Origin: a virus
Taxonomy: Duplodnaviria > Caudoviricetes
Length of the DNA stretch: 64,000 bases
Direction: 5' to 3' (one strand)
IMG/VR virus record: IMGVR_UViG_3300042010_000129
Span: 247,965 to 311,964 of that record
Shown piece by piece: positions 3,516-56,854 of this stretch; within the stretch, counting starts at the first letter, position 1, and each line of letters starts with the position of its first letter. The translations under genes were made by a program, and so were the position numbers. The notes under the pieces were generated by a model. The model ran no database searches, was not told where the DNA came from, and was given only the letters and a program-made list of their open reading frames with translations.

Positions 3516-3584
3516 GGTTCACTCCATTTAAGAGTTTGTGGGTTTTTATACCTCACGTTTAAAAATTACAAAGTTCAGAAAACT

Positions 3585-10160: not shown

Positions 10161-11458
10161 AGACGTTTCCCAGCAGTCATTTCAAGGTCGGCGGCCTTTT
10201 CCAAAATCTTGTCGAGTTCAGGCCCTTGCATCAGACGCCCTACCGAAACAGATTTCAATTGCCGCAAGTCTTCCCCGGCATGCACTTTGTAATGACGCAA
10301 CGATTTGGTGTCTTCATTGTAAAGCACAAGCGTGTCAGACATGCCGTGTTCTTCAATGCTGACGATTACCCACTCGGCGTTATCCCGCGCAATCAGCACT
10401 TGTCCTTCTTGTGCCAATACCGCAGTTTCATCATCGACTGGTTCACCGTCTTCGTCGGTTTCCTGATCTTTGTGGAAATCCATTTCTGGATCTTCCTCTT
10501 CCTCAAAGTCTTCGTCTTCCAAAGGAGTAATACCCGGTTCTTCTCCTTTATTTACAGTATTGCCTCCGCTTTCCTCGGGGAAATCTTCCTGTTCGATTGG
10601 CGGATTCAGCAGATTTTCTTCGTCTTCCGGTTCGAAATCGAAATCTTCGTCGATATCTTTGTAATCGAAAGTGGTCACAAGCGGTTTATTTCGCACCACA
10701 TGTTTTGCACTTTCCGACTCGCCAGTTTTGGTCTGGCGTGGCAGCGGAACATCGCGTGGCTTGCGTGGGATTTTAATTGCCCGCGCACGCTTGGGAAGTT
10801 CTTTTGCCAGTTCCGCAAATTCGACGATGCCGGTCTGCTGTTGGGCACGCGGCTCAATGTCGGTATTGTTCGTGATTTGTTCGTACAGTTCGTGCGCGAT
10901 CAACACGCGTTCACCGTTCGGCATGATCACATAACCGCCATGGGATTTACGCAGGTAGCGCAGGCCCACAACGTCACCGGTTTTCAAAGTAGAACGGGAA
11001 GTCCCGTAATGCTTCGTGGTCACGGTGATGCTGTGCATTACCTTTCGCCACTGGTAATCGTCGCGGTCGTAACTGTGAACTTCGCGAGGCTTGCGCGGAC
11101 TCACATAAAACTGCGATTCTTGACGATCATTTTCCAGTTGGTTTTTGCGCATGTACTGGTGCCGGGCGCCTTCCTTTTTTGGCGCTTCCGGAATCCCTTT
11201 GTACTCTTTGAATTGCTTGATGAATTTGTCGATTTGATCCTGCTTGATCGACCGGTAAATCTTTTGCGGGTATTTGGCGAGTACCACTTGATACGCACCA
11301 GCGGTTGGCCCCCGTGTTGCTTTTCGGAAGCCAACCAAATCGTCAGTATCGACCGTGACAGGCGTATCGTCCAGCCGCAACTTAAAACTTTTACCCGCGT
11401 TGTACATCCATTCGAACTGCTTGAAATCAGCAGGTGATGCGGCAAGGGAAATAATCAT
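10157..11458 (-). CDS. Hypothetical protein with acidic region, possible virion protein (433 aa)
   Basis: Begins MIISLAASP; long D/E-rich linker. Confidence 0.6.
   Translation of the reverse strand: MIISLAASPADFKQFEWMYNAGKSFKLRLDDTPVTVDTDDLVGFRKATRGPTAGAYQVVLAKYPQKIYRSIKQDQIDKFIKQFKEYKGIPEAPKKEGARHQYMRKNQLENDRQESQFYVSPRKPREVHSYDRDDYQWRKVMHSITVTTKHYGTSRSTLKTGDVVGLRYLRKSHGGYVIMPNGERVLIAHELYEQITNNTDIEPRAQQQTGIVEFAELAKELPKRARAIKIPRKPRDVPLPRQTKTGESESAKHVVRNKPLVTTFDYKDIDEDFDFEPEDEENLLNPPIEQEDFPEESGGNTVNKGEEPGITPLEDEDFEEEEDPEMDFHKDQETDEDGEPVDDETAVLAQEGQVLIARDNAEWVIVSIEEHGMSDTLVLYNEDTKSLRHYKVHAGEDLRQLKSVSVGRLMQGPELDKILEKAADLEMTAGKRL
10549..10560 (-). promoter_or_regulatory. ATACTGTAAATA motif (intragenic, ~390 nt upstream of ligA)
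   Basis: Exact copy of the recurrent motif. Confidence 0.45.
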
Positions 11459-16178: not shown

Positions 16179-17819
16179 TTAATTCTCTTGGAAGCTGATA
16201 GAGGAACCGAAATTGCGGATATCGGCGGTCAGGGAAGCACGGCGGGCCGGAATGCTCGGGTCGATAACGAAATCGAGGTTGATATCGTTATTCGCGATAT
16301 CTGCCGGTTTGTTGTTACGGCTGTCGCAAATGGTTTCCCATTCGTACAAACCACGACCGCGTTTCACCGTTGCTGCTTCGGCGTCCACGATGTTTTTCAG
16401 CTGCTTGCGTTCGTAATCGTCGGCAGGGTTGAAAACCGATGGCAGGAAAGCACGACGAATCATTGCTTTGATGCCGTTTACCAGACGACGCACGTTCACG
16501 TTCTGGAAACCAGACGCGAAATTCTGCAAAGTCAGTTGTTCCATGATCACGAAACCACGGCCCGGAATTCGACGCACGTAGTTGATTTGCGCCTGTTCCA
16601 AAGCGTTGCGTTCGCGCAGGCTGTATTTCTTGGAAAGATCCGTGACTTTTACTTGACCACGATTCAAACCAGCCGGTGCCCAGTAGTAGGCACGAACGCG
16701 GTCGGTGTACGCGTATTGCGCAGCAACCAAACCGGAAATCGGGCAAAAGAATTTCTTGCCGGAAACGTCGTCGGTAATCTGACCACGCGGGCCATACATT
16801 GCCGAGTAGCTGGAACTCAGGTTCAGGATATTGCGACGGTAATTCACAGCACGCGAAACTTCTTCGTATTCGTGCGGCAAATCAACAATCGAAATCGCGT
16901 CACCGCGTGCAGTTGCTACGGCGTCAATGCGACGGTGAATGATCGGGTTTTCGTAACCACAACCAACCAGCAATTGCACTGCGAATTGATCAGTATCGTC
17001 GATGCCTTCCCATGCGTTGCTCACTTCGGCCACGGTCGCACGCGCACCATCGGCGCCACCATCCAGACGTTCGAAAGCAGAAGTGCGGATTTCAACCGGT
17101 GGGCAAAGCGAATTGTTTTTCACTTTGATGTATTGCGAGAATGCGTTTACACGCGACTCGACAAACATCTGATTGCCTTCGCCATCCAGTTCGAATTTAC
17201 GCGAACACAGATACGATTCAACCGGAATGCTGGCGCTGCCCTGATAATTCAGGAAAACTTCCAGATAGAAATGCGTTGGGTCATTGAATTCACCGACTTC
17301 GGTTCCTTCCGGGTTTGCCGGACGAACCAATACAGTCAGTGCGCCTGCCCAATCGCCGGGGCTATTCGCGCAAACGTAAAGCAAAGCGTTTTTAACGCCC
17401 GGCTCGTTTACGTTGAAACCCAACACGTCGAGCGGATTCCCCAATACGCCTTGCGGTTTGTTGGTTCCATCGTCGAAATTCACCAGTTTAATAACTGGTT
17501 CCAATGCAGCGCTATCGTCAACCGAAAGGTAGGCGCCAGCGGTGCGGGCGGTATCGGCGTTTACTGCGCGTTTAATCCACATTGCGGTTTGCACCAAAAC
17601 GTGTTCTGCGCAATGCATGCCGTAGCCGTATTTGGAATAGTTCTTGTCACCGAACTTTTCCTTCAAATCTTGCGTATCGGTAACGTAAATCCATTCCGAC
17701 GTAGAGCCGCGAGCGGACTCGATCACAGCAGCCGCAATAGAGCTAATGACCGGCGAACCGCGTTGACTTACGTCGCGATCCTGATCATAAACCCCAGCGC
17801 TGGAGTTGGTAAAAGCCAT
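16179..17819 (-). CDS. Contractile tail sheath protein (546 aa)
   Basis: N-terminal SAGVY; YYWAPAGLNRG; C-terminal VNVRRL and ICDSRNNKPADIANN signatures. Confidence 0.92.
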   Translation of the reverse strand: MAFTNSSAGVYDQDRDVSQRGSPVISSIAAAVIESARGSTSEWIYVTDTQDLKEKFGDKNYSKYGYGMHCAEHVLVQTAMWIKRAVNADTARTAGAYLSVDDSAALEPVIKLVNFDDGTNKPQGVLGNPLDVLGFNVNEPGVKNALLYVCANSPGDWAGALTVLVRPANPEGTEVGEFNDPTHFYLEVFLNYQGSASIPVESYLCSRKFELDGEGNQMFVESRVNAFSQYIKVKNNSLCPPVEIRTSAFERLDGGADGARATVAEVSNAWEGIDDTDQFAVQLLVGCGYENPIIHRRIDAVATARGDAISIVDLPHEYEEVSRAVNYRRNILNLSSSYSAMYGPRGQITDDVSGKKFFCPISGLVAAQYAYTDRVRAYYWAPAGLNRGQVKVTDLSKKYSLRERNALEQAQINYVRRIPGRGFVIMEQLTLQNFASGFQNVNVRRLVNGIKAMIRRAFLPSVFNPADDYERKQLKNIVDAEAATVKRGRGLYEWETICDSRNNKPADIANNDINLDFVIDPSIPARRASLTADIRNFGSSISFQEN

Positions 17820-17887
17820 GGGTGAATCCCCTTATATGGTTGGAATACGGGAAATTGAGAATCGCGAATAAACGCATTTCCTGTATT

Positions 17888-17894
17888 TAAATTA
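17888..17894 (-). promoter_or_regulatory. Candidate late promoter element TAATTTA
   Basis: 69 nt upstream of the sheath ATG and just downstream of a terminator. Confidence 0.45.
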
Positions 17895-17916
17895 CGCAAA
17901 GGGGATTTCAGGCAAC

Positions 17917-30666: not shown

Positions 30667-33600
30667 TTAACGGGTTTTGTATTTGAAGGTAAGCTCAGAC
30701 AATTCTTTCAGCGCCTGATCTTTGTTCGACACGGTAACGTTGCGCGCTACTTCAGCAACCTTCGCTTTCAGGTCGGTTTTATTCTTCCCGAAATACATCC
30801 ATTCACCGTCAGTCTTCAACCACTTGGCGCCGGAGTTCGGAATAACTTTGCCGATGTGTTTGATGATGCCGGGGTTAGTCCGCAAGTCCACGCAAAGCAT
30901 CACGTGTTCTTCGGTGAAGATCGGGAACACACGAATGGCCCGACGGTTGCTGCTCATACGTTTCTGCACGCTGAAGAACGCAGGCAATTCACTTACCGGC
31001 GCCAGTTCCAAGCGATACCACAATTTGTGAGTGTTTTTCATACCTTCGTCAAATGCGCCGTTGATCGAAGCGAACAAATCGTTCGTCTTCTGATTAACTT
31101 CGAAGTTGTCGTAGATCCAATCATAAATTGCGTGGAATTTCTTCTTGTTCGAAACGTTGATGTACGCGTATGCCGGAGTGAATTTGAAACCTTGCTTCGA
31201 CAGATCCACATCGCCCGATTCCACGATTGCTTCCAGTGTTGCGAAGCCGTGGTAGTAGGCAGGATACAGCGAAATTTCTGCTGCTTCGATTTCTTCCGGC
31301 TCTTCAGGGAAATCCTCCTGCTCAACAATGACGCCGACTTTCGGATTGTCGGTTGGACGCAATTTCTTGCCGCCGCCGATTTTCACCGTACCGCCAGTTT
31401 CGTAAATGCCTTCGTTGAGTGGACGCCCTTTCTTTTCGTTCTCCGTGCGTTTCTCGCCGTCCTTCGCTTCCTTCTTGATAACGCGGATTTTTTCGCCTTC
31501 TTGTTTCTTCCGGATGCGCTCTTCGCGCTCTTCCTGTTCCGCTTGTTTGCGCTGCTGTTCTTCCAACCGCTTTTGGCGGGCGGCGGAACGTTTCTCTTCG
31601 GTGTCAGTACCAGCCAGCGACACGTCAAAGAATTGCGCTTCCTGTTCCGGCGAAATATTCTTCTGCGCAAGGTAAGCCATGTTCACTTGAACCGTCACAC
31701 GCCCCGGCATACCGGCAGGTGGATTTTTCAAGTTCACGATCAAGCTAGAAAGCTTACCGCCACGGGTGTTAAAGCCAACGATACGCCCGGTGCCCCATTC
31801 GGTAACAACCGGTTTCGTGCGCAATTTTTCGCTGAAGTTTTTCACGACTTCCGGATCACGCAGCAGAACTTCAACGTTCAGCAGACCCCAGTTGTGGTGG
31901 TCGGGAATTGGTTGGTTCGCAACGAACGGCACCAGTTCCATACGGGCCGAGCCTTCCAGATTTGGAGCGCCTTCAATCGGCAACATATCCGCTTTCATCG
32001 AATTGCGCATTTCTGCGAATTCTTTTGCTTCCACGGCGTTGAGGCGACGATATGCGTCTTCCATTTCGTTGAAAGGTTCGTCGTCGAGGCCAGCGGTCGA
32101 TGCAAGCATGTCCACACTGAGAGCCAAACGACGGTCGTCTTTTTCCGTTGGAACATTCACAGAAGCCAGCAATTCTTTGTACAACGGATTCGCTGCTTCG
32201 GTGATTCGAGCAACACCGAAAGTTTTGGAAATAACACGCGCCAGTTTCGGCACTTCCATGGTGTTGTCGGCCAGTACCCAATCCAGATAAACCACGTCAC
32301 GGGTCAAACCGCCTTCGCCTTTCGCCGCTGCAATTGCGCCCTTAGCATCTGGACGCCACACACGCGCAGCAGTTTGCGACAAAGCACCCGGCCCCCATGG
32401 GGCTTCTGCGCGAATCATTCGGCTTGCCAATTGAAGGTTGTGACCTTCGGACATGCCTTGTTCGTTCGCAATCAGAATTTGTACGCGATCATCGGTTTTG
32501 AAATCGTTGAAAGCTTTTACGCGATCAGGTTCGTCGCCGGTAAACTTCACCGCCATCGCCTGATAGTTCGGTGGCAATGCATCAAACACAGCCCGCGCAC
32601 TTGCGTTGTAACGCGTGATAATGATCAGCTTGCCCTTCGGTTCTGGCTTCCAATAATCTGGAGCTTCGACCGGAGTTTTCGATTGAACGTTATCAGGAAT
32701 TGCTACGCGAGTTTCGCCCGGATTGTATTTCCGTGCGACATACAGCTGGCCTTCGAAATCAACGAGGTCGAGTTCGATGTAGCGAGTGCCACGGCGCCAT
32801 TTCTGCGGGTTGAAGTGCTTGGCTGCAAGGTTCGCGATGTACTTCGCTTTACGCGAAATAAACCCTTCACCCATATTGCCGAAAACTTCGGTGTAGGCTT
32901 CGTCTTCCTGCGGGCAGATAATCAGGCGTTCGAAACGCGCAATGTTTTTCTCCCACAATTTCTGCGCGATTGCTTCGCCGGAGAAGTCGGAGTCGTTATC
33001 GACGAATTTATCGCCGTTACCTTCCTTGCCATCTTCCTCTTCGTCGTCGCTGTCGTCGCCACCGTTTTTCTCTGCGAGCGCTTCAGCTTTCGCTTTCTGA
33101 CGCAGCAGTGGTTCCATCTCTTCCAAGGTACGGTCGAGAACCAAACGGTACAATTGTTCGTGCAGTTTTTGCTGTTCGATTTCGGCAGGCGATGTTCCGT
33201 CTGCGCCGTCGTAGTCCACCATTGGAACCGGGTGGAAACTTTCGATAGCGGACGGCAGCATGTATGCCCAATCCTTTTTCTCTTTCACAATAAACGAAAT
33301 ATAGTGACCGAGTTTATCGACAGCACGTTTGCCGTTGAGCGGGGTGTAGGTGCTAATGATGCGATCACCGATTTTCACCAGACCGCTATCTTTTTCCGCT
33401 TCTTGATCAGGCTTGATATTCGCGATATCACCAGCACGGAAAACGTGCGGCGCTTTCAACGCGATTTGACCTTCGATATCTTTCGCCCGGTCAGGCATGA
33501 TCGTACCAGTCAGCAGGCGCAGCCATTTGACAGTGGTCGAAGAGGTAATGATTTTTACTGCACGGTGACGCGCAGATTTAAACGATTTCAAGTTGTGCGA

Positions 33601-36600
33601 TTCGTCGATTGCCACATAGTTGCAACCGAGGCGACGAATCAACTCAAGGTTTTGCGAGAAGTTAACCTGCGCGTTACCAATACACACGCGGGTATTCCGG
33701 CCTTGAACGAAAGTCATCGAACTGATAAAAATCGTGTTCGGTGGTGCGTTAACTGCCAGATCACTCAGGCGTTTTTCACCAACGGCTTTCATCCAACGTT
33801 GCAGAACTGCGGAACTGATCGGGAATGCGTTCCAATTGGAGCCTTGGAAATATTTCATTTCCTCACACCAAGTGTTGATCAGGCCGTTAGGGCAAATAAC
33901 CAACGGACGTACAACGGTGCCCGCTTCTTTCATGTCTTTCATCAGACATGCAATGTCGATAATGCCTTGACCGGTTTTACCACCGCCCGGCGCCAGTGCC
34001 AGAATTGCGAAGTTTGGCGGATTCTTTTTACGCAGCGAACTTTGCACCGATTCTTGGTGCGGGAAAATTGCACGGTCTTCACCGATTTTCCCCGGCATCT
34101 TGATATCTTCGGCGCTGAACGATGGATCGGGCTGGATAGACTCAGCCTGTTCAGTTGCTTCTGCGAAAATCGTTTCCGCATTTGGCGCATATTTCCCGAG
34201 CATTACAGCGAACGGCAGAACGTCACGGTACAGAGTGGCGTTAGCCTGTAGCGGCATGCTGATCGAGAAGTTTTGGCCCGGACGATCAGGCATTTCGCCC
34301 AAGTTCACAGTGGCCTGACCAGCGCGAGCATTCGCGTAGTGTTCGATTTCAACACTGTTGATCGCGTCGAGGATTTGCTTGAAAACTTGCCCACCGAAAT
34401 AACGGAACAGGCGCGAAAATTCTGCGGCGGTCGAAATCGTGGTGTTGAAATAATCCGGATGGTTTTCCAGTTCGAGACTGACTTCCGATGCACGCGGAGT
34501 TTTATCACCGTTGCGCAAATTCTCGAAAGTTTCGTTCCACAGGTGCGTGCCCTGTGCGCCGGAAGCCATGTCCATTGCAGTTTCCAACAGGCTTTGAATC
34601 ACGCCGCGAGTGTTGCCCTTTGCGCGATCCGGAAGCGTGCCTTCTGGTGTCAGAAACTTGATGTAATCCGGACTGTAATCGAAACCCGGTTCAGTCGGCA
34701 GCTTCGAGTAATTCAGGGCGCGCATTGCACTGCCCAACAATTCCGGAAGCTTTGGCACTTTGTTATCGACGTAGGCCAACCGCATATAGAGGTTGATCAG
34801 GTTCGAAGCCAATCCGCTTTTTGCGAATTTCAAATGGTCGTCAGCGGCGCCGTAAAGTTCTTCTGCGCGCTTGTACGCCCACGCGGTGTGTTCCCCGTGG
34901 TTCAGCGTGTACATGGCTTGCGCAAACGAACGCTTCATTGGTGTTTCGCCATCTTTGGCGAGGTTGAAGCCAAGCCAGTCAGCGATTGCCAAAGAATCCG
35001 GAGTTACTGCACCGACCGAAGTCGAAGTAACAGTGCGGCCCGGTGTGTCGGTTGCCTGAATGTTGATCCCGAAGTCCCAATCGAAACCGAGGGAACAGCC
35101 GTCGAAATCGTTCAGTTCTTTTACAAGTTCCTGCATGCGCTGCAAATCTTGCGCATCAACCCACGGCCATTTTTCTTCGCGGGGTTCGGCTTGGAAAGCA
35201 GCCAAAGGAATTTCGTTGCGGCTCAACAGTTCCAGCAATTCTTCCGAAACTTTCTCGAAATCTTCAGCCAGAGTAGTTTTTTGCAGCGCGTCGATACTTG
35301 GACGAACAGCCATCGTGCCCTGCGGCGTGATGAACATGTTTTCCGCGTTACCTTTGGTACGTTCAACAACGTAACCGAATTGTTCACGCAGCGCCGGGAT
35401 TTTCTTCAGCGTGGAAGCGCTGGTCGCGTAGCGCGGGATATGATCCATGTGAATTGCTTTGGTGTTGGTAATCTTGTAAGCCTTACCAGTACCCGTAACT
35501 TTCGCACGCAGAACCTGCGCGATGTACAGGGAGAACCAAGAATTCGCACGGGTCAAACTTGCGCGTTCGTTGGCCGGAGTTTGCGAAACAAAATGCGCGA
35601 TATCCGATTCCAGCGTGAAGCGGATCGAAGTACGAACGGTGATGTTCAGCAATTCCGATTCGGGAGTAATCTTCGGGCGTTCACCGTTCAATTGCTCTTC
35701 GATTTTCGCATTAACTGCGGTCGGACTCAGCGCCTGTTCGTTGAACGCTGGTTTGGTGTTGCGCAGTTTTTCAGTCAGTTTTTTAACAGCGTGGCTCGGC
35801 TGTTTAATCAGTTCGATTTGCAGGAACTGATCAGCGAACGGGTTGGACACAACCATGTCGGTGACGATTTCACCAGCAGTCGGCATTTTCAGGCCGGTGT
35901 GTTTCGTCCAGATTTTTTCAACGTCGCTGAATTTGGTGTTGAGCGGAACGCCACGGTGAATCATACGTTCGCTGCTGGCAGTGGTGCCGAACAGGAACAT
36001 GTGAATTTCACGCGCTGCTGCCAAAATCTTTTCGCCCATCGACGATTGCCACGTGCCCTTACGGCGCATTTCAGTCAGTGGGAAATCGTTGTTGGTTTCC
36101 AGATATTCGCTGCGACCGAGTTCGAAGTCGGACACACCGAAATACGGCGCAGGCAGACCTTCTTTTTCAGGGTCAGCACCGGCACCCATCAGCACCACGT
36201 CGAGGCCTTCGTTATAGCGCTTCGAGCGGTAAACGTTGTGGAAGCTGTGCGCAGTACGACGCGAAGCACGCAGGAAGTTTACAACGTCTTCCTGAATGGA
36301 ACCGGACGTGCGCTTCGAATGGAACACTTGCACAAAAATCGAAGAAATCAATTCTTCGTTCTGTTCGTCGGTGTTCATCGACATAACGTTTGCGCGGCCC
36401 ATACAGATACGGACGAAACGCAAAAACATGTTGAGGTTGGAAGTTACGTCGCTCAGCGATTCCAGAATCGGAACCAGAAAGTTACGCTCTTTCTTCGGGT
36501 AGAAAAAAGATTCGTATTCGAGGTTTCGCGCAGGTTCCAGCGAAATGGTACGAATAGATTTTACGAATTCGGAACTGTCGTCGCCCTGTTCGTCTTCGTC

Positions 36601-44159: not shown

Positions 44160-44191
44160 TGCACGTACACCCGAATATGTGGATATACAAT

Positions 44192-44198
44192 TAAATTA
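44192..44198 (-). promoter_or_regulatory. Candidate late promoter element TAATTTA
   Basis: 33 nt upstream of the 44159 start. Confidence 0.4.
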
Positions 44199-44211
44199 TG
44201 GTCTAGATAGC

Positions 44212-44251
44212 AAAAAACCCGCCTCCCCTTTTACAGAGAGACGGGTTTTTT
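44212..44251 (-). terminator. Rho-independent terminator after the histone-like gene
   Basis: CCCGTCTCTCT...GGGGAGGCGGG stem (G-U pairs on the minus strand) flanked by A6 and T6. Confidence 0.75.
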
Positions 44252-44277
44252 GTTTGAATCAAACTGCGAATCAGGTA

Positions 44278-46835: not shown

Positions 46836-47141
46836 CTATTTGCGAGTCCACGTGAGTTCCAGATCGTAGCCGAGTTTGGCGGCGATCCCGATTAACACAT
46901 CGAGGTCGGCACACACCAATTGTTCGTGATCGTTATCTGGAAGTTCATCGTAAAAATATGGAGTGAGTTCGCGATTCAACGGCCCGCCCATGACAAGGTA
47001 TTTACCGCGTACAAACTCACGGAAAACACGTGGTTTATCGTATGCGGATTTCCCTTTAGTTTGGGGCCGGGCCTGACGCTCCAATTCATTGAGGATCAGA
47101 GCGTAAAGTTCCCGCTTCATTTTATTTACAGTATGGTTCAT
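46836..47141 (-). CDS. Hypothetical protein (~101 aa)
   Basis: Start chosen at the ATGA overlap with the upstream stop. Confidence 0.45.
   Translation of the reverse strand: MNHTVNKMKRELYALILNELERQARPQTKGKSAYDKPRVFREFVRGKYLVMGGPLNRELTPYFYDELPDNDHEQLVCADLDVLIGIAAKLGYDLELTWTRK
47123..47134 (-). promoter_or_regulatory. ATACTGTAAATA motif (~300 nt upstream of sbcD)
   Basis: Exact copy of the recurrent motif. Confidence 0.5.
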
Positions 47142-47530
47142 TCGCGATTTACCGTGACCGTGAAGTGGATGCGTTTGCGTGGCTGGCACAACTGGAATTC
47201 GGTGTAGACGGTGCCGAGTTGCTTGCGCCCTACTTTGTGTGCGTGGCGGCGACCGTACAGCGTGAGGTCAAGGATTTTATTTCCGTCCGTATCGTTGAGG
47301 CGCACAACGCAGCGATTTTTAATATCGTGGATTGAATAGGTCGCAACCTGTGTGGAAAAAGGATCGTAAATGGCGCCACTCGTTTTGAGGTCTTCCATGA
47401 ATTCGCCAATGTGTTTACCGAATTCTTCACGTTCACGTTTTTCGTCACGCGGGGTCGTTACGATTTCTTCGACCTGCTGCTGGATGTGAGCCAACAGGCG
47501 GCGCGCATTGATTTTTTCGAGCGGAGTCAT
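47138..47530 (-). CDS. Stand-alone tail-sheath C-terminal-domain-like protein (130 aa)
   Basis: INARRLLAHI vs sheath VNVRRLVNGI; GAIYD vs RGLYE; EFQLCQPRKRIHFT vs DFVIDPSIPARRASLT. Confidence 0.55.
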   Translation of the reverse strand: MTPLEKINARRLLAHIQQQVEEIVTTPRDEKREREEFGKHIGEFMEDLKTSGAIYDPFSTQVATYSIHDIKNRCVVRLNDTDGNKILDLTLYGRRHAHKVGRKQLGTVYTEFQLCQPRKRIHFTVTVNRE

Positions 47531-47844
47531 GCGAGATTCCTGTGACGAAGACGCAGGCAGGAGCCGGGATAAAGAACTTTCGGATCAAACAGATTATTGA
47601 TGAACGCCACACGGTCGGCGTCCACTTCAAAACGCTGCGCAATCTCCACCAATTTGTCGTTGGTTTTGATGTGGTAAATGTTGTAGCGGTCGCCCAGTTC
47701 GCGTTCGTACTGAACATCACTGAAACACTCGGCAGGCGGCGTGTAAACGCAACGGGTGCGAAAGATCGGAACGTCCAGCGGATTCAATTGCGCGGCCAGC
47801 ATTTCGATTTGTTCTTCGCGGTCTAGCTCGACAACTGCATTCAT
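47527..47844 (-). CDS. LysM domain protein (105 aa)
   Basis: YHIKTNDKLVEIAQRFEVDADRVAFINNLFDPKVLYPGSCLRL. Confidence 0.8.
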   Translation of the reverse strand: MNAVVELDREEQIEMLAAQLNPLDVPIFRTRCVYTPPAECFSDVQYERELGDRYNIYHIKTNDKLVEIAQRFEVDADRVAFINNLFDPKVLYPGSCLRLRHRNLA

Positions 47845-48435: not shown

Positions 48436-48783
48436 TTAATCCCCTGTAATTGGTTTCCAAAGTTTCGTGTATTGCAAAACCTTTGGTACAGCGTCACACC
48501 ATACTGGCATCACCACAAGGCACGATGGTTCCGCGTTGCAGATAGTGTTTTCATGGCCTTGGTGGCATACCAAAGTCTCACGGATTTTATCGAACTCACG
48601 GCGATTAACACGCACCGTTACTTTGCGAAAAGAATGAATAAACCATTCGATGTATTCGGGATACTTTGGATCGTCGAAAATCGTATGGGCAGTCAGGATG
48701 GAATGCGCGACCAATGTCGGCACCATGTAATCAGGCGCTTCGTCGAGAACTGCGATGTACATTTTGCTGTAGCGTTCGTTCAT
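48436..48783 (-). CDS. Peptidyl-tRNA hydrolase II (Pth2)-like protein (115 aa)
   Basis: KMYIAV...LVAHS...WF..SFRKVTVRV...GHENT pattern of phage Pth2-like proteins; ATGA-coupled start. Confidence 0.55.
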   Translation of the reverse strand: MNERYSKMYIAVLDEAPDYMVPTLVAHSILTAHTIFDDPKYPEYIEWFIHSFRKVTVRVNRREFDKIRETLVCHQGHENTICNAEPSCLVVMPVWCDAVPKVLQYTKLWKPITGD

Positions 48784-49181
48784 TCCGGTGCCACTTCCTT
48801 GGTTTCGATTTGCCATTCGATTTTGTAAGTCTTCGCGAACATGCGAGCCAGACGCAGAGAACGGAATTGCAGTTTGAAACACGGCCATGAGTATTCAACG
48901 ATGGCGCCGCGTTTGGTTGCGTAAATGGTGTAGGGTTTTTCCGTCTTCTGCGCACGCGCCAAATCCAACCAGCGTGCGATGTGTTCAAGTTCGCGAGAAC
49001 CTGCCACGGTTTCAGTTACGGTCAGCGACATAGGCGCGGGCACGTAGTCGGAAGGCCGGGACGTGAGTTCGATTCCCTGCAAACCTTCAACGAACGCACC
49101 GTCGGCTTCCAGCGCCATCGGAATATTTTCGAAAGTTACCTGATATTTACGCAGGTCTTCCGGGCAGATATTCCCGATCAT
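48780..49181 (-). CDS. RSLRLAR-family hypothetical protein (133 aa)
   Basis: C-terminal ATKRGA...FRSLRLAR. Confidence 0.55.
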   Translation of the reverse strand: MIGNICPEDLRKYQVTFENIPMALEADGAFVEGLQGIELTSRPSDYVPAPMSLTVTETVAGSRELEHIARWLDLARAQKTEKPYTIYATKRGAIVEYSWPCFKLQFRSLRLARMFAKTYKIEWQIETKEVAPE

Positions 49182-49573
49182 TCCAGCACTTCCATCATGA
49201 GACGATCAACGCTCAGGCCGATACGCTGGCACATGCCGGTCAACTGGTCACGGCTCAGACGATCAATGCGGCCCTGCAAAATATCGTCAAGGCGATTGTT
49301 GGAAATGTTCAACTGCTGACAAATCACTTCGGGGTTTTGACCGAGGCGTTTGATTTCACGACCGAGGGCGCGCAGCAGGTAGCTACGAATTTTCATGGCG
49401 AGCGATTCTTCAGGATTTTCGCAGATCGCATCCCACACGCTTTCGTAACACTGGCGTTTGGTTTCTTCGTCCACGGAACTTATGACGATATCGACCGCCA
49501 GAACATTTTGGTCAATGGCTTCAGGCGGGTTGTTGGTGTGGTCGCAGATAACCGTATATTCGTGTCGGCTCAT
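49178..49573 (-). CDS. Fusion of a sheath C-terminal peptide to a HigA/XRE (HTH_37-like) domain (131 aa)
   Basis: Residues 5-31 match the local sheath (12/27 identical); residues ~45-125 SVWDAICENPEESLAMKIRSYLL...NISNNRLDDILQGRIDRLS resemble HigA-type XRE proteins. Confidence 0.6.
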   Translation of the reverse strand: MSRHEYTVICDHTNNPPEAIDQNVLAVDIVISSVDEETKRQCYESVWDAICENPEESLAMKIRSYLLRALGREIKRLGQNPEVICQQLNISNNRLDDILQGRIDRLSRDQLTGMCQRIGLSVDRLMMEVLE

Positions 49574-50073
49574 TTTCTTTTTGTCCGGTAGTTATGTTCA
49601 GGAATGCGGCACCCCTTCATTTCGACGCGGGCCAAACGGGCCGAGCGGTATTTGAAGACGTAATGCTGGTTTTCTACGCCACGCTCACGCACGTAAACTT
49701 CTACGCCACGCGTTGTGTGCTTGAGAACGAAATAGTATTTGGATTGTGGCTGAACTTCGCGGAAAGGATCGCAGTGGATTTCCATCCCATGGATATGACC
49801 GATTTTTCCGGTGAACACATTTTCCAGTTCAACCTGTTGTTTCTCGATGATTGTTTCGCCACCGTGCGAAACTTTCACACATTTACGTTGCGGCAAATCA
49901 ACTGGAAACGATGCCGGAAAACTCCACATTGTCCACCGGCCCTTTTTAGGCAAGCGGCCACCCAACGGACAGTCAGCAAGCGGGCCGTTCGGCGTGGAAA
50001 TGGAAAGCAATTTCGCGCTGTCGGCCATTGCCCAGCCGCGCTGCACTTCGGAACCGAATACGTTTACGTGCAT
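49570..50073 (-). CDS. RSLRLAR-family hypothetical protein (167 aa)
   Basis: HTTRGV...YRSARLAR. Confidence 0.55.
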   Translation of the reverse strand: MHVNVFGSEVQRGWAMADSAKLLSISTPNGPLADCPLGGRLPKKGRWTMWSFPASFPVDLPQRKCVKVSHGGETIIEKQQVELENVFTGKIGHIHGMEIHCDPFREVQPQSKYYFVLKHTTRGVEVYVRERGVENQHYVFKYRSARLARVEMKGCRIPEHNYRTKRK

Positions 50074-50468
50074 GGGTTCACCAGTTCGGCATTTTTGAAC
50101 TTGGTATTTTTCACCATCGTTTTAAACGCCACACGGGCCAGACGCAGCGAGCGGAAATGCTTACCGAATGATACGGCACCTTTGGGCGTAGCACGACAGA
50201 ACAGACGCGGCGACATTATACGCCGGTATGTACGTTCGAACACTTCACGCATAGCGCTCTCATGCATTTTCGATGCACGAATGCGGTTGTCCCAAGCTGC
50301 GTCGAAAAATGAAACGTGGGTATCACAATGACTGGTCAGAAATTCTTCGGAAATTCCGAGTGCCGCCATTCGCAGTTTTGTCAGGCGTTCAATTTCTTCA
50401 CTGATCGGCAGACGCCAATCGCCTTTGCCACCGTAAGTATCAAAGCCTTCAGCGGTATAAAGTGTCAT
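50064..50468 (-). CDS. RSLRLAR-family hypothetical protein (134 aa)
   Basis: ATPKGA...FRSLRLAR. Confidence 0.55.
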   Translation of the reverse strand: MTLYTAEGFDTYGGKGDWRLPISEEIERLTKLRMAALGISEEFLTSHCDTHVSFFDAAWDNRIRASKMHESAMREVFERTYRRIMSPRLFCRATPKGAVSFGKHFRSLRLARVAFKTMVKNTKFKNAELVNPCT

Positions 50469-51962: not shown

Positions 51963-52279
51963 ATTTTGTTCCCCAGTAGCGCCCCTTTTTTAACGAGGGC
52001 GTAAGTCATGCCAGAAACAACGTGGATATCGAATACGAACATGATTTCCACGCTGGCTTTTTCTGCCCAACGCAGACCGACGATGCACGGGAATACTTCC
52101 GGTTCCAAGTCTGGATTATTTACAGTAGGCATCCAGCCCCAGTGGTCGAGGGCATTGATATCGTTTTCGATAAAGAATTCGCGAAGGAAATCGCGATACT
52201 CTTTTTCGTCACGAAGTGTTTTGGCTTCGAAGCCTTCACGCATCATAGCGAACATTGGAAACCCCCTTATATTTCTCAA
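51959..52279 (-). CDS. Hypothetical protein (up to 106 aa)
   Basis: Coding-strand ORF; contains a TACTGTAAATA copy at 52117-52127. Confidence 0.5.
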   Translation of the reverse strand: MRNIRGFPMFAMMREGFEAKTLRDEKEYRDFLREFFIENDINALDHWGWMPTVNNPDLEPEVFPCIVGLRWAEKASVEIMFVFDIHVVSGMTYALVKKGALLGNKI

Positions 52280-54539
52280 CCGTCACGTAGGAACATTCCG
52301 GGTGCAGATGCTTGCCTTTCTGCGTGATGATAAACACGTGCTGCACCAGCTTACGCAGGAACGGAACGTAGCGTTCGACAAACAGGCCGGTGGTCGCTAA
52401 GTCCATGTGGGCATCGGGTTCGTCGAGAATTGCCAGATTCACCCGGCGACTATCTTTCGCCATGATTACGCACGCAAGGAAATGCAGCAGACGGAAACTA
52501 TCCGATTCAGCACCGGACAATTCGCGCACGTCGGAAACGTTACCTTGGCCCCGGTCAACAGTGATATGCACGCCGTCTTCTTTGGCTTCCACTTTGAACT
52601 GGAAATTCTCCGCGAAAATCAACTGCGCATATTTGTTGTAGTTTTGTTCCAGTCCATAAACGATTTCGTGCATCGCGTGCAGCTTCAGGCCCTTGTTGCT
52701 GTAGGCCTTTGCGAGAATCTTGAAGCGCTTCAGTTTCCGGATCAGAGGTTTGTATTCCTCGACCTTGAGACTGGCTTCCTCACGTTGCTTTTTCAGCAGT
52801 TTCCATTCGGCACGCAGCGAGCTATACCGCACGGTGATTTTGTGAGCTTTGCTGTATTTCTTTTCGACCTTTTCCAGCTTGGCTTCGACTTCAGCCAGAC
52901 GCTTGAGGATATTGTCGTCAGCAGGTACTTCGTCGAACTCGGCCAGACGGGCTTTCAACCGTTTAACTTCGTCCAGCATTTCGAGTTGCTGTTCGATTTT
53001 CTCCAGCGAGATAACCGGTTGGCGCTTCGGTGGCTTCGGCTTTTTCAGTTCAGCCATTTGTTCGGTGATTTCGTCGAAGCGCACAGAGTTTTCCATCTGG
53101 TCTTCGAGTTTTTCCAGTTCCGCACGCAGCGCCTTGATCTTTTTGCGAGCGCCGTAGAAAGCGCGTTCGTCAAACTTCAGGGCCTTGATGATTTCCGTGT
53201 TTTCCTGCTTCGTGATTCGCAGTTCCAACGCGTGAATCATTGAGTGCGCTTTGCCTTTGCGTTTCTTCGCCTGTGCAATCGTGCGCTCAAGGTCTTTGAT
53301 GTTGATTTTCTGCATACACGTCGGACACGCGCCGTCGTCATGATCGTGCAGCAGGTCGGCCAACTTCATTGTCGTTTTGGCGGTGCTGTATTCCTCTTTC
53401 AGCGCCTCCATTGGATCGACTTTTTCTTTGTTGCATTGCGTCAGGAATTTGCGCAGATCCGGATCAACATGGTCGTCCAAGTTTTCCAGTTCACGCACAG
53501 CCGCATCGTGCTTGTCCCGAACTTTCTCAAGGCGTTTGTCTTCCGCTTCGAGGCCGTCCAGTTCTTTCCGGATTTCCTTGATACGTTTCTTCAGCGTTTT
53601 GCTGTCGCCACCGTCGCCCAGTTCTTCGAGTTTTTTCACCAGTTTTTTTGACCGGCGTGCGTACTCTTCGTTTTCCTCTTCGAACTTTTCCAGCGCTTCG
53701 TGCAACTGGCGTTGCTCTTTCAAATCCGCACGATCAAAACGGATTTTACCTTGCAGCTTTTTCAGACGTTCGCTGGTGGTCGTGTAGAACTCAACCTGCT
53801 TCGACAGGCTTTTCAGTTCCTGCCGTTTCGCCTGCAACTTGTTCACTTTCTTGGACTGTGTGCTGACGATTTCTTTCGCCGCTTCCAGTTCCTTTTCCAG
53901 CGTCTTGTTCCAGCCGTTTTTATTCAACGCATCGTTGATGTTCATCAGCTGGTGCGTGAATGCGTCCGACTTGTTCTGCGCGACTTTTACTTCGTCGATT
54001 TTCTTTTCGAAATGACGACGCAGAATGTCGAACTGATCCAGACGCCACACTTCGCTGATATAGGTCATCCGCGCACGGGGAGTACCGTACAGGAATTCCA
54101 TTTTCTTCTGCGATTGCAAATGCACATACGAGTACCATTCATCCGAGGTCAGAGGAATGATTTGTTCGATTTGCGCACGCTGGTTGGCTTGGCCCCGCAC
54201 TTTCAGGTCTTCGCCATCGCGCCAGATTTGATACCCGCCCGCCTGTTGCCGAATCGTCCACTTGTGCCCGAGGTTATTCACATCGAATTCAATGAACGAT
54301 CCTTTCGAGTGGATACGATTTTTCTTCCGAGTATCTGCCAACGGCGTCTGTTCAAAACGCACGTTAGGCAGCATCGAGAACAGCAAGGATTTACCGGCGC
54401 CGTTGTTCTGGTCTTTGGAGATTTGCGAGTCGCGGTTGTGCCCGCTAACCGTGGTCAGACCACAGTTGTTAGTGAAATCGAATTCACCCTTTTTGTAAGA
54501 AACGATACCGCTAAAACGGCTGCCGGTAATCTCAATCAT
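52236..54539 (-). CDS. sbcC: SbcC/Rad50/gp46-like SMC ATPase (767 aa)
   Basis: Walker A NGAGKS, Q-loop HLQSQ, zinc hook CPTC, signature LSGAE, Walker B ILDEPDAHMD, coiled coils. Confidence 0.9.
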   Translation of the reverse strand: MIEITGSRFSGIVSYKKGEFDFTNNCGLTTVSGHNRDSQISKDQNNGAGKSLLFSMLPNVRFEQTPLADTRKKNRIHSKGSFIEFDVNNLGHKWTIRQQAGGYQIWRDGEDLKVRGQANQRAQIEQIIPLTSDEWYSYVHLQSQKKMEFLYGTPRARMTYISEVWRLDQFDILRRHFEKKIDEVKVAQNKSDAFTHQLMNINDALNKNGWNKTLEKELEAAKEIVSTQSKKVNKLQAKRQELKSLSKQVEFYTTTSERLKKLQGKIRFDRADLKEQRQLHEALEKFEEENEEYARRSKKLVKKLEELGDGGDSKTLKKRIKEIRKELDGLEAEDKRLEKVRDKHDAAVRELENLDDHVDPDLRKFLTQCNKEKVDPMEALKEEYSTAKTTMKLADLLHDHDDGACPTCMQKINIKDLERTIAQAKKRKGKAHSMIHALELRITKQENTEIIKALKFDERAFYGARKKIKALRAELEKLEDQMENSVRFDEITEQMAELKKPKPPKRQPVISLEKIEQQLEMLDEVKRLKARLAEFDEVPADDNILKRLAEVEAKLEKVEKKYSKAHKITVRYSSLRAEWKLLKKQREEASLKVEEYKPLIRKLKRFKILAKAYSNKGLKLHAMHEIVYGLEQNYNKYAQLIFAENFQFKVEAKEDGVHITVDRGQGNVSDVRELSGAESDSFRLLHFLACVIMAKDSRRVNLAILDEPDAHMDLATTGLFVERYVPFLRKLVQHVFIITQKGKHLHPECSYVTVEKYKGVSNVRYDA

Positions 54540-56854
54540 TACGGTTCCAGATATTTTCGGATTTCATTGAGTTGGTCGGCGGCGCTGCCTTGGTGTTCAA
54601 AGCGCAGGCGTTCTTCCAACATTTTCAGAGTAAACAACCACTGCGGGTCTGGCGGGAAACGACCGAACTTTTCCATGCCTTCGTTTGCAAAACAGCCGGG
54701 ACTCGACAGGCGTTCCCCGTAGTGACCGGTTTTTTCGCTTGGGCCATTTGGGCCTTCCGGGCGGCCACTTGCCTTATTGCAGAGCAAATCGTTTTCCAGT
54801 TCTGCAACCGGACAACTTTCTTCGTGCAGTTCGTTGCCATACGTGCGCTGAATGCAGGTACATTCAGTGACCGGCACGCCGAGTTCGTCAGCCAGTTCGC
54901 GGCTCATGAAAACAGTTTCTGGCGTCAGAGTTGATTCGAGAATTGCATCACGCAATTTGTCGATCTTGACCGTTGCAACTTCTGCGATTTCTTCCAACGC
55001 AGCATTTGCAGCCTGCATCAGAATTTCGGTGTTGGTTGGCCCAGTGTCCGGAAGCGTTGGATCAATATCCTTCGGAGTGACCAAACGGTTTTCTTCTTGC
55101 GCTACGATTTTCAGCGCATCGCGCAGGTTTTCTTTTTCAACTGGAGTCCATGCACGCGCAGGACTGCCGGTCGGTGCAGTGAGAGAGCCGATTTCGGTCA
55201 AATCGAATTTGATATTCGGATCAACTGCGGGTGTATCGGCGCAGCCTTTCAGGAACAACCAATCCACACCTTCAACGCTGGTAACTTCCGCAACGTTGGT
55301 CAGCGTCAGAACTTCAACGATGTGTTTTTCGTCGTCCGGATGCAAATTGAATTTCCGGATGAAAACACTGACCTTCACACCACCGTCGAGGAAGTCGGTG
55401 ATATCTTTCGGGTTGAGATTTTCGATCATCGCGTAACTGATCAGCGGAACGTCGCGATCCGATTTAGGCCGGAACGGTTTGTATTCTTTGCCCTGATAAC
55501 CAGTTTTCACCGGGAAGGTTTTCGGCGGGAAAGTCCCGGCCTTCGGGCTGGCGCTGACTGCGGTCTTCTGCGCGTACTGCACGTTCGAAGTGTGAGGCCC
55601 TTTCACGATGCTGTCAGGGTTGCTCACGTCGTAATCGAAATCGACCAGATAACGCGTCACATCGCTGTGATGAATTCGCGTTGTTTCCACGATATCGAAA
55701 AGGCGATACGGCTCGCTCAAGTTTTCGCAATATTCGTCCATGATTGCGATGGCATCACTTGGGTCAGTGGTGCGGTGCGCAATGTACATGGAACCCGGCA
55801 CATATTCCAACGTCGGGTCGATAAACTCGGTGCCATCCCAACCCATCAGCACGCCGCTACTCGCCACGTCTTCAAAGATTTCCAAGAAACGATCTTTGTC
55901 GATGAAATGCTTTTCGCTGATTTCCGCGTACAACGAATCGCTGGTGAATGCGCCGCGATAATTCAGCATCCGTCCGCGCAGATCGTCAGAGAAAAGCGTC
56001 GGCAAATTGCTACGTGGTTTTTCTGCATGAGCTTGGGCCGCTGCACGATCTTCGGCCAGTGTTTCGTTGTGGTATTTCTTCAATGGTTCCGGAACATCTT
56101 TTTCCAGAACTGCAATCAGGCGCGCAGCCAAATCATCGTCCGATTCAGAGTCGGATTCGGCTGGTGTCTGGATAAGTTCCGCCAAAGCTTTCTGGTTTTG
56201 CACAACCGATTCGACGGTGACAGGTTCAACTTTGATTTCCGCTACCAATTCTGCGACTTTTTCCAACACAACTTCCACCGCGTCACCGAATTTTTCCAGA
56301 TCGGCAGGTGTTGGATTTGCAGGCAGCGCCTTCGATTTGGTTTCAATCGTTTCGTTGAGTAGCGAATAAACCGTGAGGTTTTTACTCAACATGCCGTCAG
56401 TAACCAGCTTGCGCAGCGGGTTGATCAGCGACGTTCCTTTTGCGAGGCCGAATTTTTGTGCGATAACGGCGGCGGTGCGAGGCACACCATCTGCCATGTA
56501 TTCCGCGATCATTTCAGGCGTGACTTTCATGGCCGTTCCATCGAGTGTTTCATTCGAGGTTTCCGGCACCGACTCCACAACTGGCACCGGGTCTGGTTTG
56601 GTTTCGATCACAGGCGCCAACGCGGCTTCAGCCTGTTTGCGTTCCTGTTGACGCTTTTTGAATTCATCGGAAATGGACAGGCGATTATTTTCCGTCGCCT
56701 GTACATAACCCGCCTGTTTCAGACGCTCAAGTGCCCGCGTCAATTGGCTGTGATGCTTTCGCAGTTCATCCCCGTAATAAGTCAGGGTGCGTCCTTGGTC
56801 ATTCTTGATTGCGTACAGCAGTTCTACCTCAATCGCGGACAGGTCTGTCATCAC
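54539..56854 (-). CDS. Large hypothetical protein with several HTH/winged-helix-like segments (771 aa)
   Basis: e.g. LTRALERLKQAGYV, AAVIAQKFGL...LRKLVTDGML, SRELADELGVPV. Confidence 0.55.
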   Translation of the reverse strand: MMTDLSAIEVELLYAIKNDQGRTLTYYGDELRKHHSQLTRALERLKQAGYVQATENNRLSISDEFKKRQQERKQAEAALAPVIETKPDPVPVVESVPETSNETLDGTAMKVTPEMIAEYMADGVPRTAAVIAQKFGLAKGTSLINPLRKLVTDGMLSKNLTVYSLLNETIETKSKALPANPTPADLEKFGDAVEVVLEKVAELVAEIKVEPVTVESVVQNQKALAELIQTPAESDSESDDDLAARLIAVLEKDVPEPLKKYHNETLAEDRAAAQAHAEKPRSNLPTLFSDDLRGRMLNYRGAFTSDSLYAEISEKHFIDKDRFLEIFEDVASSGVLMGWDGTEFIDPTLEYVPGSMYIAHRTTDPSDAIAIMDEYCENLSEPYRLFDIVETTRIHHSDVTRYLVDFDYDVSNPDSIVKGPHTSNVQYAQKTAVSASPKAGTFPPKTFPVKTGYQGKEYKPFRPKSDRDVPLISYAMIENLNPKDITDFLDGGVKVSVFIRKFNLHPDDEKHIVEVLTLTNVAEVTSVEGVDWLFLKGCADTPAVDPNIKFDLTEIGSLTAPTGSPARAWTPVEKENLRDALKIVAQEENRLVTPKDIDPTLPDTGPTNTEILMQAANAALEEIAEVATVKIDKLRDAILESTLTPETVFMSRELADELGVPVTECTCIQRTYGNELHEESCPVAELENDLLCNKASGRPEGPNGPSEKTGHYGERLSSPGCFANEGMEKFGRFPPDPQWLFTLKMLEERLRFEHQGSAADQLNEIRKYLEP

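Follow-up and report, generated by a model that had tools for sequence, protein, structure and literature searches.

The window analysed here, a 64,000-nucleotide stretch of DNA, comes from a jumbo myophage whose relatives include the Pseudomonas phages Lu11 (280 kb) and HRDY3 (313 kb). Between sbcC and sbcD it carries, on the minus strand, an operon of small ORFs ending with a 130-aa ORF that is homologous to the C-terminal domain of the tail sheath (Table 1; hereafter the mini-domain ORF). A preliminary description of the sequence had reported this ORF as lying among accessory ORFs about 30 kb from the sheath gene, and this location was borne out: the ORF is present on the minus strand within the operon, and the distance to the sheath gene is 29.3 kb. 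It is joined to its neighbours on both sides, with its ATG overlapping the stop codon of the upstream LysM gene (ATGA, 47527-47530) and its own stop codon overlapping the ATG of a downstream 101-aa ORF (ATGA, 47138-47141), the start codon of the latter having been set from its homologs. Comparison with a closer metagenomic relative (L013, 79% amino acid identity) gave a dN/dS of 0.147; the mini-domain ORF is under purifying selection and is therefore a functional gene.

Table 1. Features of the mini-domain locus and of the sheath gene, in window coordinates
Feature	Position	Strand	Evidence
Mini-domain CDS, 130 aa, free-standing homolog of the tail-sheath C-terminal (inner, handshake) domain	47138..47530	(-)	ORF, hhalign, fold matches, dN/dS
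Two helices, residues 3-50	47381..47524	(-)	hhalign, AF2, PDB profile match
Basic insert, residues 73-107, lineage-specific, predicted strand-strand-helix, net charge +5, in place of the sheath hairpin tip	47210..47314	(-)	
Residues 93-106, GRRHAHKVGRKQLG, with invariant or near-invariant R94, R95, A97, G101, R102 and G106	47213..47254	(-)	family alignment
Residues 117-127, alternating beta pattern conserved, modelled at low confidence	47150..47182	(-)	
Full-length tail sheath gene, 546 aa	16179..17819	(-)	phrog_23 4e-60; Pfam Phage_sheath_1 and Phage_sheath_1C
Sheath C-terminal domain, homolog of the mini-domain	about 16224-16514	(-)	hhalign
HTH_37 protein gene; N-terminal ~30 residues (49481-49561) replicate the sheath hairpin together with the tip missing from the mini-domain	49178..49573	(-)	
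LysM-domain gene, 105 aa, upstream, ATGA overlap	47527..47844	(-)	
101-aa ORF with no assigned function, downstream, ATGA overlap; absent in Lu11 and L021	46836..47141	(-)	
ACTGTAAATA promoter-type motif leading into the small-ORF operon	52117..52126	(-)	
Terminator-like hairpin between the sbcC end (52236) and the operon's ACTGTAAATA	52179..52196	(-)	
Second ACTGTAAATA motif, 6 nt past the mini-domain stop and upstream of sbcD; same place in Lu11 and L013	47123..47132	(-)	

Operon context and promoter-type motifs

The gene order is shared by seven Lu11-like loci, in which sbcC is followed by small ORFs, the LysM gene, zero to two further small ORFs, the family member, sometimes the 101-aa ORF, sbcD, and then virion/connector genes. 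The LysM gene was found upstream of the family member in 7/7 of these loci. The position of the family member next to sbcD is stable across the Lu11-like phages, while the small-ORF island otherwise varies. DNA-metabolism genes also adjoin more distant family members: in phage PaBG the copies have a DprA-like gene and genes of nucleotide metabolism as neighbours and are five genes away from the endolysin, and the distant member P0022 adjoins Pyr_excise (PF03013) and dCTP-deaminase-type (PF22769) genes. Neighbours of this kind therefore occur in three different settings (SbcCD, DprA-like and Pyr_excise/dCTP-deaminase-type).

The LysM neighbour was considered as a baseplate LysM protein of the gp53/gpX type and rejected, its best PDB matches being peptidoglycan- or chitin-binding LysM domains. 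In Lu11 the 208-aa 'putative endolysin' gp114 (L001 5359-5985) corresponds to two separate genes of the window, the LysM gene and 48436-48888 (-); the latter encodes a phrog_5822 domain with 62% identity to gp114, and two unrelated small ORFs lie between the two. Neither half of this gp114 counterpart matched a known lysozyme family in Pfam.

The motif ACTGTAAATA occurs nine times on the minus strand of the window (0.2 expected), at 10549 (upstream of DNA ligase), 19646 (a J-domain unit), 23017 (helicase), 27250, 29721 (DNA polymerase), 37651, 47123 (sbcD), 52117 (the small-ORF operon) and 58072 (clamp loader). The Lu11 record places a 'putative middle/late promoter' directly after its family member gp113, and the annotated sequence includes ACTGTAAATA. 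A different motif, GTAATTTAA, is found on the minus strand upstream of the sheath gene (17887-17895), a 281-aa head-region gene (39883) and a 120-aa gene (3973), with variants upstream of other virion genes (44160-44277, 3516-3584), often just past a terminator-like hairpin; none was found in the operon of the mini-domain ORF. These two putative promoter motifs split the genes, ACTGTAAATA going with replication/repair genes and the small-ORF operon and GTAATTTAA with the sheath and head-region genes. The placement of ACTGTAAATA makes the mini-domain ORF the last gene of a replication-type operon, and the layout in L013 is the same. The promoter class would argue, indirectly, against a stoichiometric virion role. 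It does not amount to proof, because T4 gene 25, which adjoins uvsY, is likewise transcribed before the late period.

Around 47118-47141 the second ACTGTAAATA falls within the first codons of the 101-aa ORF (MNHTVNK MKRELY...), and a transcript begun at 47123 would have as its sole usable start an internal Met at about 47120. In Lu11 the motif is present and the 101-aa ORF is absent.

Homology to the sheath C-terminal domain

The preliminary description had aligned the ORF with the last ~110 residues of the sheath. Pairwise BLASTP against the window sheath returned the same register at an E-value of 0.34, not significant alone, and the ORF is only 19% identical to the phage's own sheath. A 21-sequence alignment of the family (A2) was compared using hhalign with the last 125 residues of five sheaths (the one in the window, two from Lu11 and two from HRDY3), giving a probability of 91.9% and an E-value of 7e-7 over 95 columns, with ORF residues 2-128 matched to sheath residues ~436-535. 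The score of 41.9 stands against at most 14.5 for 30 column-shuffled controls and at most 14.7 for shuffled and reversed controls together, and the 13 distant members alone gave 90.6% and 1.3e-6. At the level of the family, similarity to the sheath C-terminal domain is thus judged to be well above chance, which upholds the proposed parallel.

Other profile searches gave weaker signals. Pfam Phage_sheath_1C was matched weakly by 9/21 family members (best E 2e-4) and the tail-sheath PHROG, phrog_23, by 5/21 (best E 1.5e-5), while the mini-domain ORF itself scored 14.8 bits against Phage_sheath_1C (PF17482), below the gathering cut-off of 26.9. A six-frame Pfam search of the relatives found full-length sheaths alone and no mini-domain members. 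Conversely, the A2 profile run against whole genomes in six frames recovered both family members and sheath genes (PaBG 2.7e-4, HRDY3 5e-3), and its best PDB sequence matches were to T4-type gp18 residues 545-606 (E 0.03). An NCBIfam scan of the mini-domain returned no match.

The hhalign alignment recovered the residue pairings proposed earlier (NARRL/NVRRL, GAIYD/RGLYE and PRKRIHFT/PARRASLT) and extended them along the domain. INARRL in the first helix corresponds to NVNVRRL in the sheath (INVRRLF in T4 gp18), GAIYD in the second helix and turn to RGLYE, SIHDIKN in the first hairpin strand to TICDSRNN, VYTEFQL in the second hairpin strand to INLDFVI, and PRKRIHFTVTV in the following strand to PARRASLTADI. 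Relative to sheath C-terminal domains of PF17482 (the phage's own sheath, T4 gp18 ~545-659 and the phi812 sheath 5li2_A), the mini-domain is therefore homologous throughout, from the INxRRL helix and second helix to both hairpin strands and the strand that follows. It differs from them in being a 130-aa stand-alone protein. The Phage_sheath_1 domain, the outer domains and everything else N-terminal of the domain have no counterpart in it, nor do the last ~11 residues, the alignment ending at about residue 535 of 546. Its description as a stand-alone sheath C-terminal domain agrees with this profile-level homology, with the lack of a Phage_sheath_1 match and with the length of the relatives, all 125-192 aa.

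The other difference is in the hairpin, whose conserved tip (NNxPxxIANND) is swapped for the basic insert. The earlier claim that the hairpin as a whole had been replaced holds for the tip, but the first hairpin strand is kept. Likewise, the insert was correctly recognised but is ~35 rather than ~45 residues long (about residues 73-107), and YGRRHAHK lies within it rather than at its end. The invariant and near-invariant residues of the family (GRRxAxKVGR..LG, plus D69 and V76) are concentrated in the insert, which marks it as the selected feature. The family pI is about 9-10. Three small paralogues nearby (48780-49181, 49570-50073 and 50064-50468, minus strand) have unrelated N-termini and share a C-terminal basic module, F/Y-R-S-x-R-L-A-R-V/M. 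The insert was considered as a fourth copy of this module and rejected (hhalign 0.2%), despite a similar order of strands and helix.

Structure prediction with AF2 on the A2 alignment reached a pLDDT of 74, exceeding 90 for residues 60-110; using the 7 close homologs alone it fell to 51 and was unusable. The best fold matches of the model were sheath C-terminal domains, and it may share their fold. A Foldseek search of the PDB gave no match at E < 0.02, with weak OB folds alone (TM < 0.3), and an ESM Atlas search, by shape (TM <= 0.42) and by features, produced nothing usable. BFVD yielded only family members, recognised from their length and identity as the homologs in Lu11 and PaBG, and PaBG S5VV27; the last, a 154-aa protein that may be gp048, was the best structural match (TM 0.65). 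In the model the strand order is a meander through the insert, so that the insert may fill the handshake positions in cis, which would abolish arm binding. A complex prediction of the mini-domain with the window sheath, the latter without an alignment, scored 0.00 and counts neither way.

Family distribution and separation from gp25

Family members occur in Lu11 (gp113), HRDY3 (XDJ15189) and PaBG (gp050), all of them unannotated and labelled 'hypothetical protein'. When 1.8 billion cluster representatives were searched exhaustively with the profile, only 14 relatives of 125-192 aa came up, indicating a small family that lacks long or fused forms. A further profile search, word-indexed, found no additional members, and tblastn queries with distant members matched none of 50,697 phage records besides Lu11, HRDY3 and PaBG. 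In PaBG the gene appears in tandem copies (NC_022096.1 26858-28358; L030 6859-8359): alongside gp050 (hhalign 95%), gp051 is a probable member (E 4e-4) and gp048 a marginal one (E 0.002). Identity of the mini-domain ORF to its homologs is 33% in Lu11 and 32% in HRDY3, compared with 72% and 85% for the sheath and 76% and 78.5% for SbcD. The mini-domain ORF diverges much faster than the sheath and gp25.

Phages of the PaBG group have two sheath proteins, which arose by duplication (PMC7412058). Lu11 (33097-34632 and 54430-56064) and HRDY3 (212220-213857 and 233444-234982) each encode two full-length sheath paralogues, ~33% identical to one another. The window itself contains one sheath gene; a second would fall beyond its left edge. 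Erwinia phage Y3 also has two sheath genes, and no family member was detected in it by a whole-genome profile search, so the mini-domain family does not track the two-sheath trait. Specialised sheath paralogues such as Afp2/3/4 and Pvc2/3/4 of extracellular contractile injection systems and the two sheaths of the PaBG group resemble the present case in sheath-gene duplication and specialisation inside a single machine, as the Lu11 lineage has two full-length sheaths. However, those proteins are full-length polymerising subunits, whereas the mini-domain is a single inner domain with an insert.

The gp25 and TssE proteins are stand-alone domains of the handshake fold by which baseplates start a sheath and, to our knowledge, these initiators, built into the baseplate, are the sole established stand-alone relatives of the sheath handshake domain. 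Some early hints pointed in this direction. The ORF matched phrog_43 (E 0.003) and, over residues 13-50, the pyocin sheath initiator PA0617 (E 0.003), and one source names a mini-domain homolog 'baseplate assembly protein W'. However, the phrog_43 match is restricted to 3 close family members, and the PA0617-like stretch is not conserved across the family. None of the 21 members matched PF04965 (GPW_gp25) at E <= 0.1, and hhalign of the family with the lineage's own gp25 (Lu11, HRDY3) gave 0.3%. A canonical PAAR-gp25-gp6 module is found ~90 kb from the family member in both Lu11 (gp230-232) and HRDY3 (XDJ15048-50). No gp25, PAAR or gp6 homolog was found within the 64-kb window, and the mini-domain ORF sits between sbcC and sbcD, not beside a gp6-like wedge gene or PAAR.

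An identity as gp25/gpW/TssE is ruled out by the absence of PF04965 matches, the hhalign result and the separate gp25 module of the two relatives, and the sheath-initiator role that the preliminary description had offered as the mundane alternative is weakened accordingly. The family differs from the characterised initiators (PF04965; pyocin PA0617 6u5b, Geobacter 2ia7) in both sequence and location outside a baseplate module. IraD of E. coli, which we take to be an anti-adaptor with a gp25-type fold (PDB 6od1_B), is a host rather than a phage protein, and no sequence relation to it was detected. From sequence evidence, the family is considered to derive from the sheath itself and not from gp25, and to be free-standing, fast-evolving, equipped with a conserved basic insert and placed in a replication-type operon. 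We conclude with high confidence that the protein is a domesticated copy of the sheath's conserved inner C-terminal domain that now stands alone, that it originated within the Lu11/PaBG jumbo-phage lineage, shedding the outer domains and C-terminal arm and gaining the ~35-residue basic insert, and that it is not a gp25 initiator.

Possible roles and the hairpin-HTH gene

In R-pyocin, T4 and the T6SS, the sheath is held to the tube by electrostatic contacts between its basic surface and the acidic tube, and adjacent subunits contribute the arms that complete the sheet of the inner domain. It is the conserved core of the sheath that touches the tube and drives assembly (PMC9230969). Recombinant myophage sheath proteins form polysheaths by themselves, as shown for gp053 of phage FV3 (PMC6357053). 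We tentatively favour the reading that the protein is a soluble, non-polymerising mimic of the sheath domain that modulates contractile-tail assembly; it is the simplest reading because the protein lacks the C-terminal arm and the outer domains, has a basic character and is encoded in a replication-type operon. Expressed from the ACTGTAAATA operon, apart from the virion proteins, the mini-domain would stay soluble as a non-polymerising mimic of the tube-proximal domain of the sheath. Its retained domain and arginine-rich helix would occupy the usual partners of this domain, namely the tail tube at its acidic outer face and/or the arms by which sheath subunits are linked, and in so doing would modulate or block sheath polymerisation. 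The target could be either the phage's own tail (e.g. premature polysheath being prevented) or a competing contractile machine. The accessory role put forward in the preliminary description is partly supported, with inhibition of rival machines and decoy action as candidate mechanisms. If the mini-domain does cap or time sheath polymerisation, it would offer a way into the question of how large myophages avoid off-pathway polysheaths, and possibly a tool to block tailocins or T6SS-like machines; more broadly, a non-virion role would mean that phages reuse the sheath polymerisation domain as a soluble factor.

Several points run against a soluble mimic. A protein binding the well-conserved sheath arms of its own phage would be expected to diverge more slowly, an insert that filled the handshake positions in cis would leave no capacity for arm binding, the argument from promoter class is indirect, and the Foldseek search gave no significant PDB match, the weak ones being OB folds. 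The fast divergence, the invariant residues in the arginine-rich helix and the DNA-metabolism neighbours in three settings favour two alternatives considered below, nucleic-acid binding on a reused scaffold and a conflict-related binder or decoy. Plausible too, though less likely than the mimic, is a low-copy virion or assembly component. The mini-domain would then cap one end of the sheath as an additional ring or adaptor (a terminator, a collar, or a second initiator/adaptor for two sheaths), built in by strand-exchange contacts like those of sheath subunits. The mini-domain is a true homolog of the sheath domain, the gp25/TssE stand-alone domains of the same fold start sheaths, the lineage has two sheath paralogues, and the C-terminal beta pattern, modelled at low confidence, could serve as a donor strand. 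Moreover, structural genes of jumbo phages are scattered, and head/connector genes begin right past sbcD. The operon, however, carries the replication-type motif and lacks GTAATTTAA, the neighbours in three settings are DNA-metabolism genes, divergence is much faster than for sheath and gp25, Y3 has no detected member despite its two sheath genes, and the adjacent LysM resembles peptidoglycan-binding rather than baseplate LysM proteins. The protein is also absent from the 14 PaBG virion bands (PMC7412058), a weak point because the smallest band is 18.9 kDa.

It is less probable that the sheath ancestry is incidental and that the fold is a scaffold displaying the arginine-rich helix for DNA, RNA or another acidic ligand, working with the flanking recombination/repair genes. 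This would account for invariant residues that lie all in the basic helix while the scaffold drifts, and would fit the basic character of the family and its insert (pI about 9-10, net charge +5), the neighbouring SbcC/SbcD, DprA-like and Pyr_excise/dCTP-deaminase-type genes in three settings, the replication-type motif and the weak Foldseek matches to OB-fold nucleic-acid binders. Were nucleic acid bound, the family would clearly exemplify the recruitment of a structural fold into DNA metabolism. Nevertheless, those OB matches have E > 0.02 and TM < 0.3, Pfam and NCBIfam scans matched no known nucleic-acid-binding family, the sheath-type INxRRL helix and D69 are still conserved in distant members, and a second sheath-derived piece in the operon, the hairpin-HTH gene, points to sheath-related biology.

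A counter-defence or regulatory binder, i.e. either a decoy that engages a host tail-protein sensor without activating it or an IraD-like protein-protein inhibitor, is improbable. Fast evolution, the tandem duplication in PaBG and the location in a small-ORF island that varies between relatives would suit such a protein, but a limited literature search surfaced no sheath-sensing defence system, a protein with 19% identity and an added basic insert would reproduce the surface of the phage's own sheath poorly, and the stable site directly upstream of sbcD in Lu11-like phages is unlike typical anti-defence cargo. The possibility that the ORF is what is left of a decaying third copy of the sheath gene, in a lineage that does duplicate sheath genes, or a chance ORF, is negligible: it is contradicted by the dN/dS of 0.15 and by more than 21 homologs of similar length with a conserved insert, and ATGA coupling to both neighbours also speaks against it.

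The hairpin-HTH gene (ORF 49178-49573) encodes a protein with an XRE/HigA-like domain (Pfam HTH_37, 1.7e-8), and its N-terminus matched phrog_10581 tail sheath (1.6e-4); a sheath query also picks up the Lu11 and HRDY3 counterparts. The copied hairpin reads EVICDxTNNxPEDIxNN and is the best-conserved part of the protein across relatives (50-67% identity), which suggests that the biology of the operon may concern the sheath. A more speculative idea, to which we give little weight, is that the mini-domain, having lost the tip, and the hairpin-bearing HTH_37 regulator would form a partner switch sensing free sheath subunits and coupling the state of tail assembly to transcription, or else that the mini-domain would be the first phage-encoded poison or timer of sheath polymerisation. 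In HRDY3 and in L015 the hairpin has an ORF of its own, immediately upstream of the HTH.
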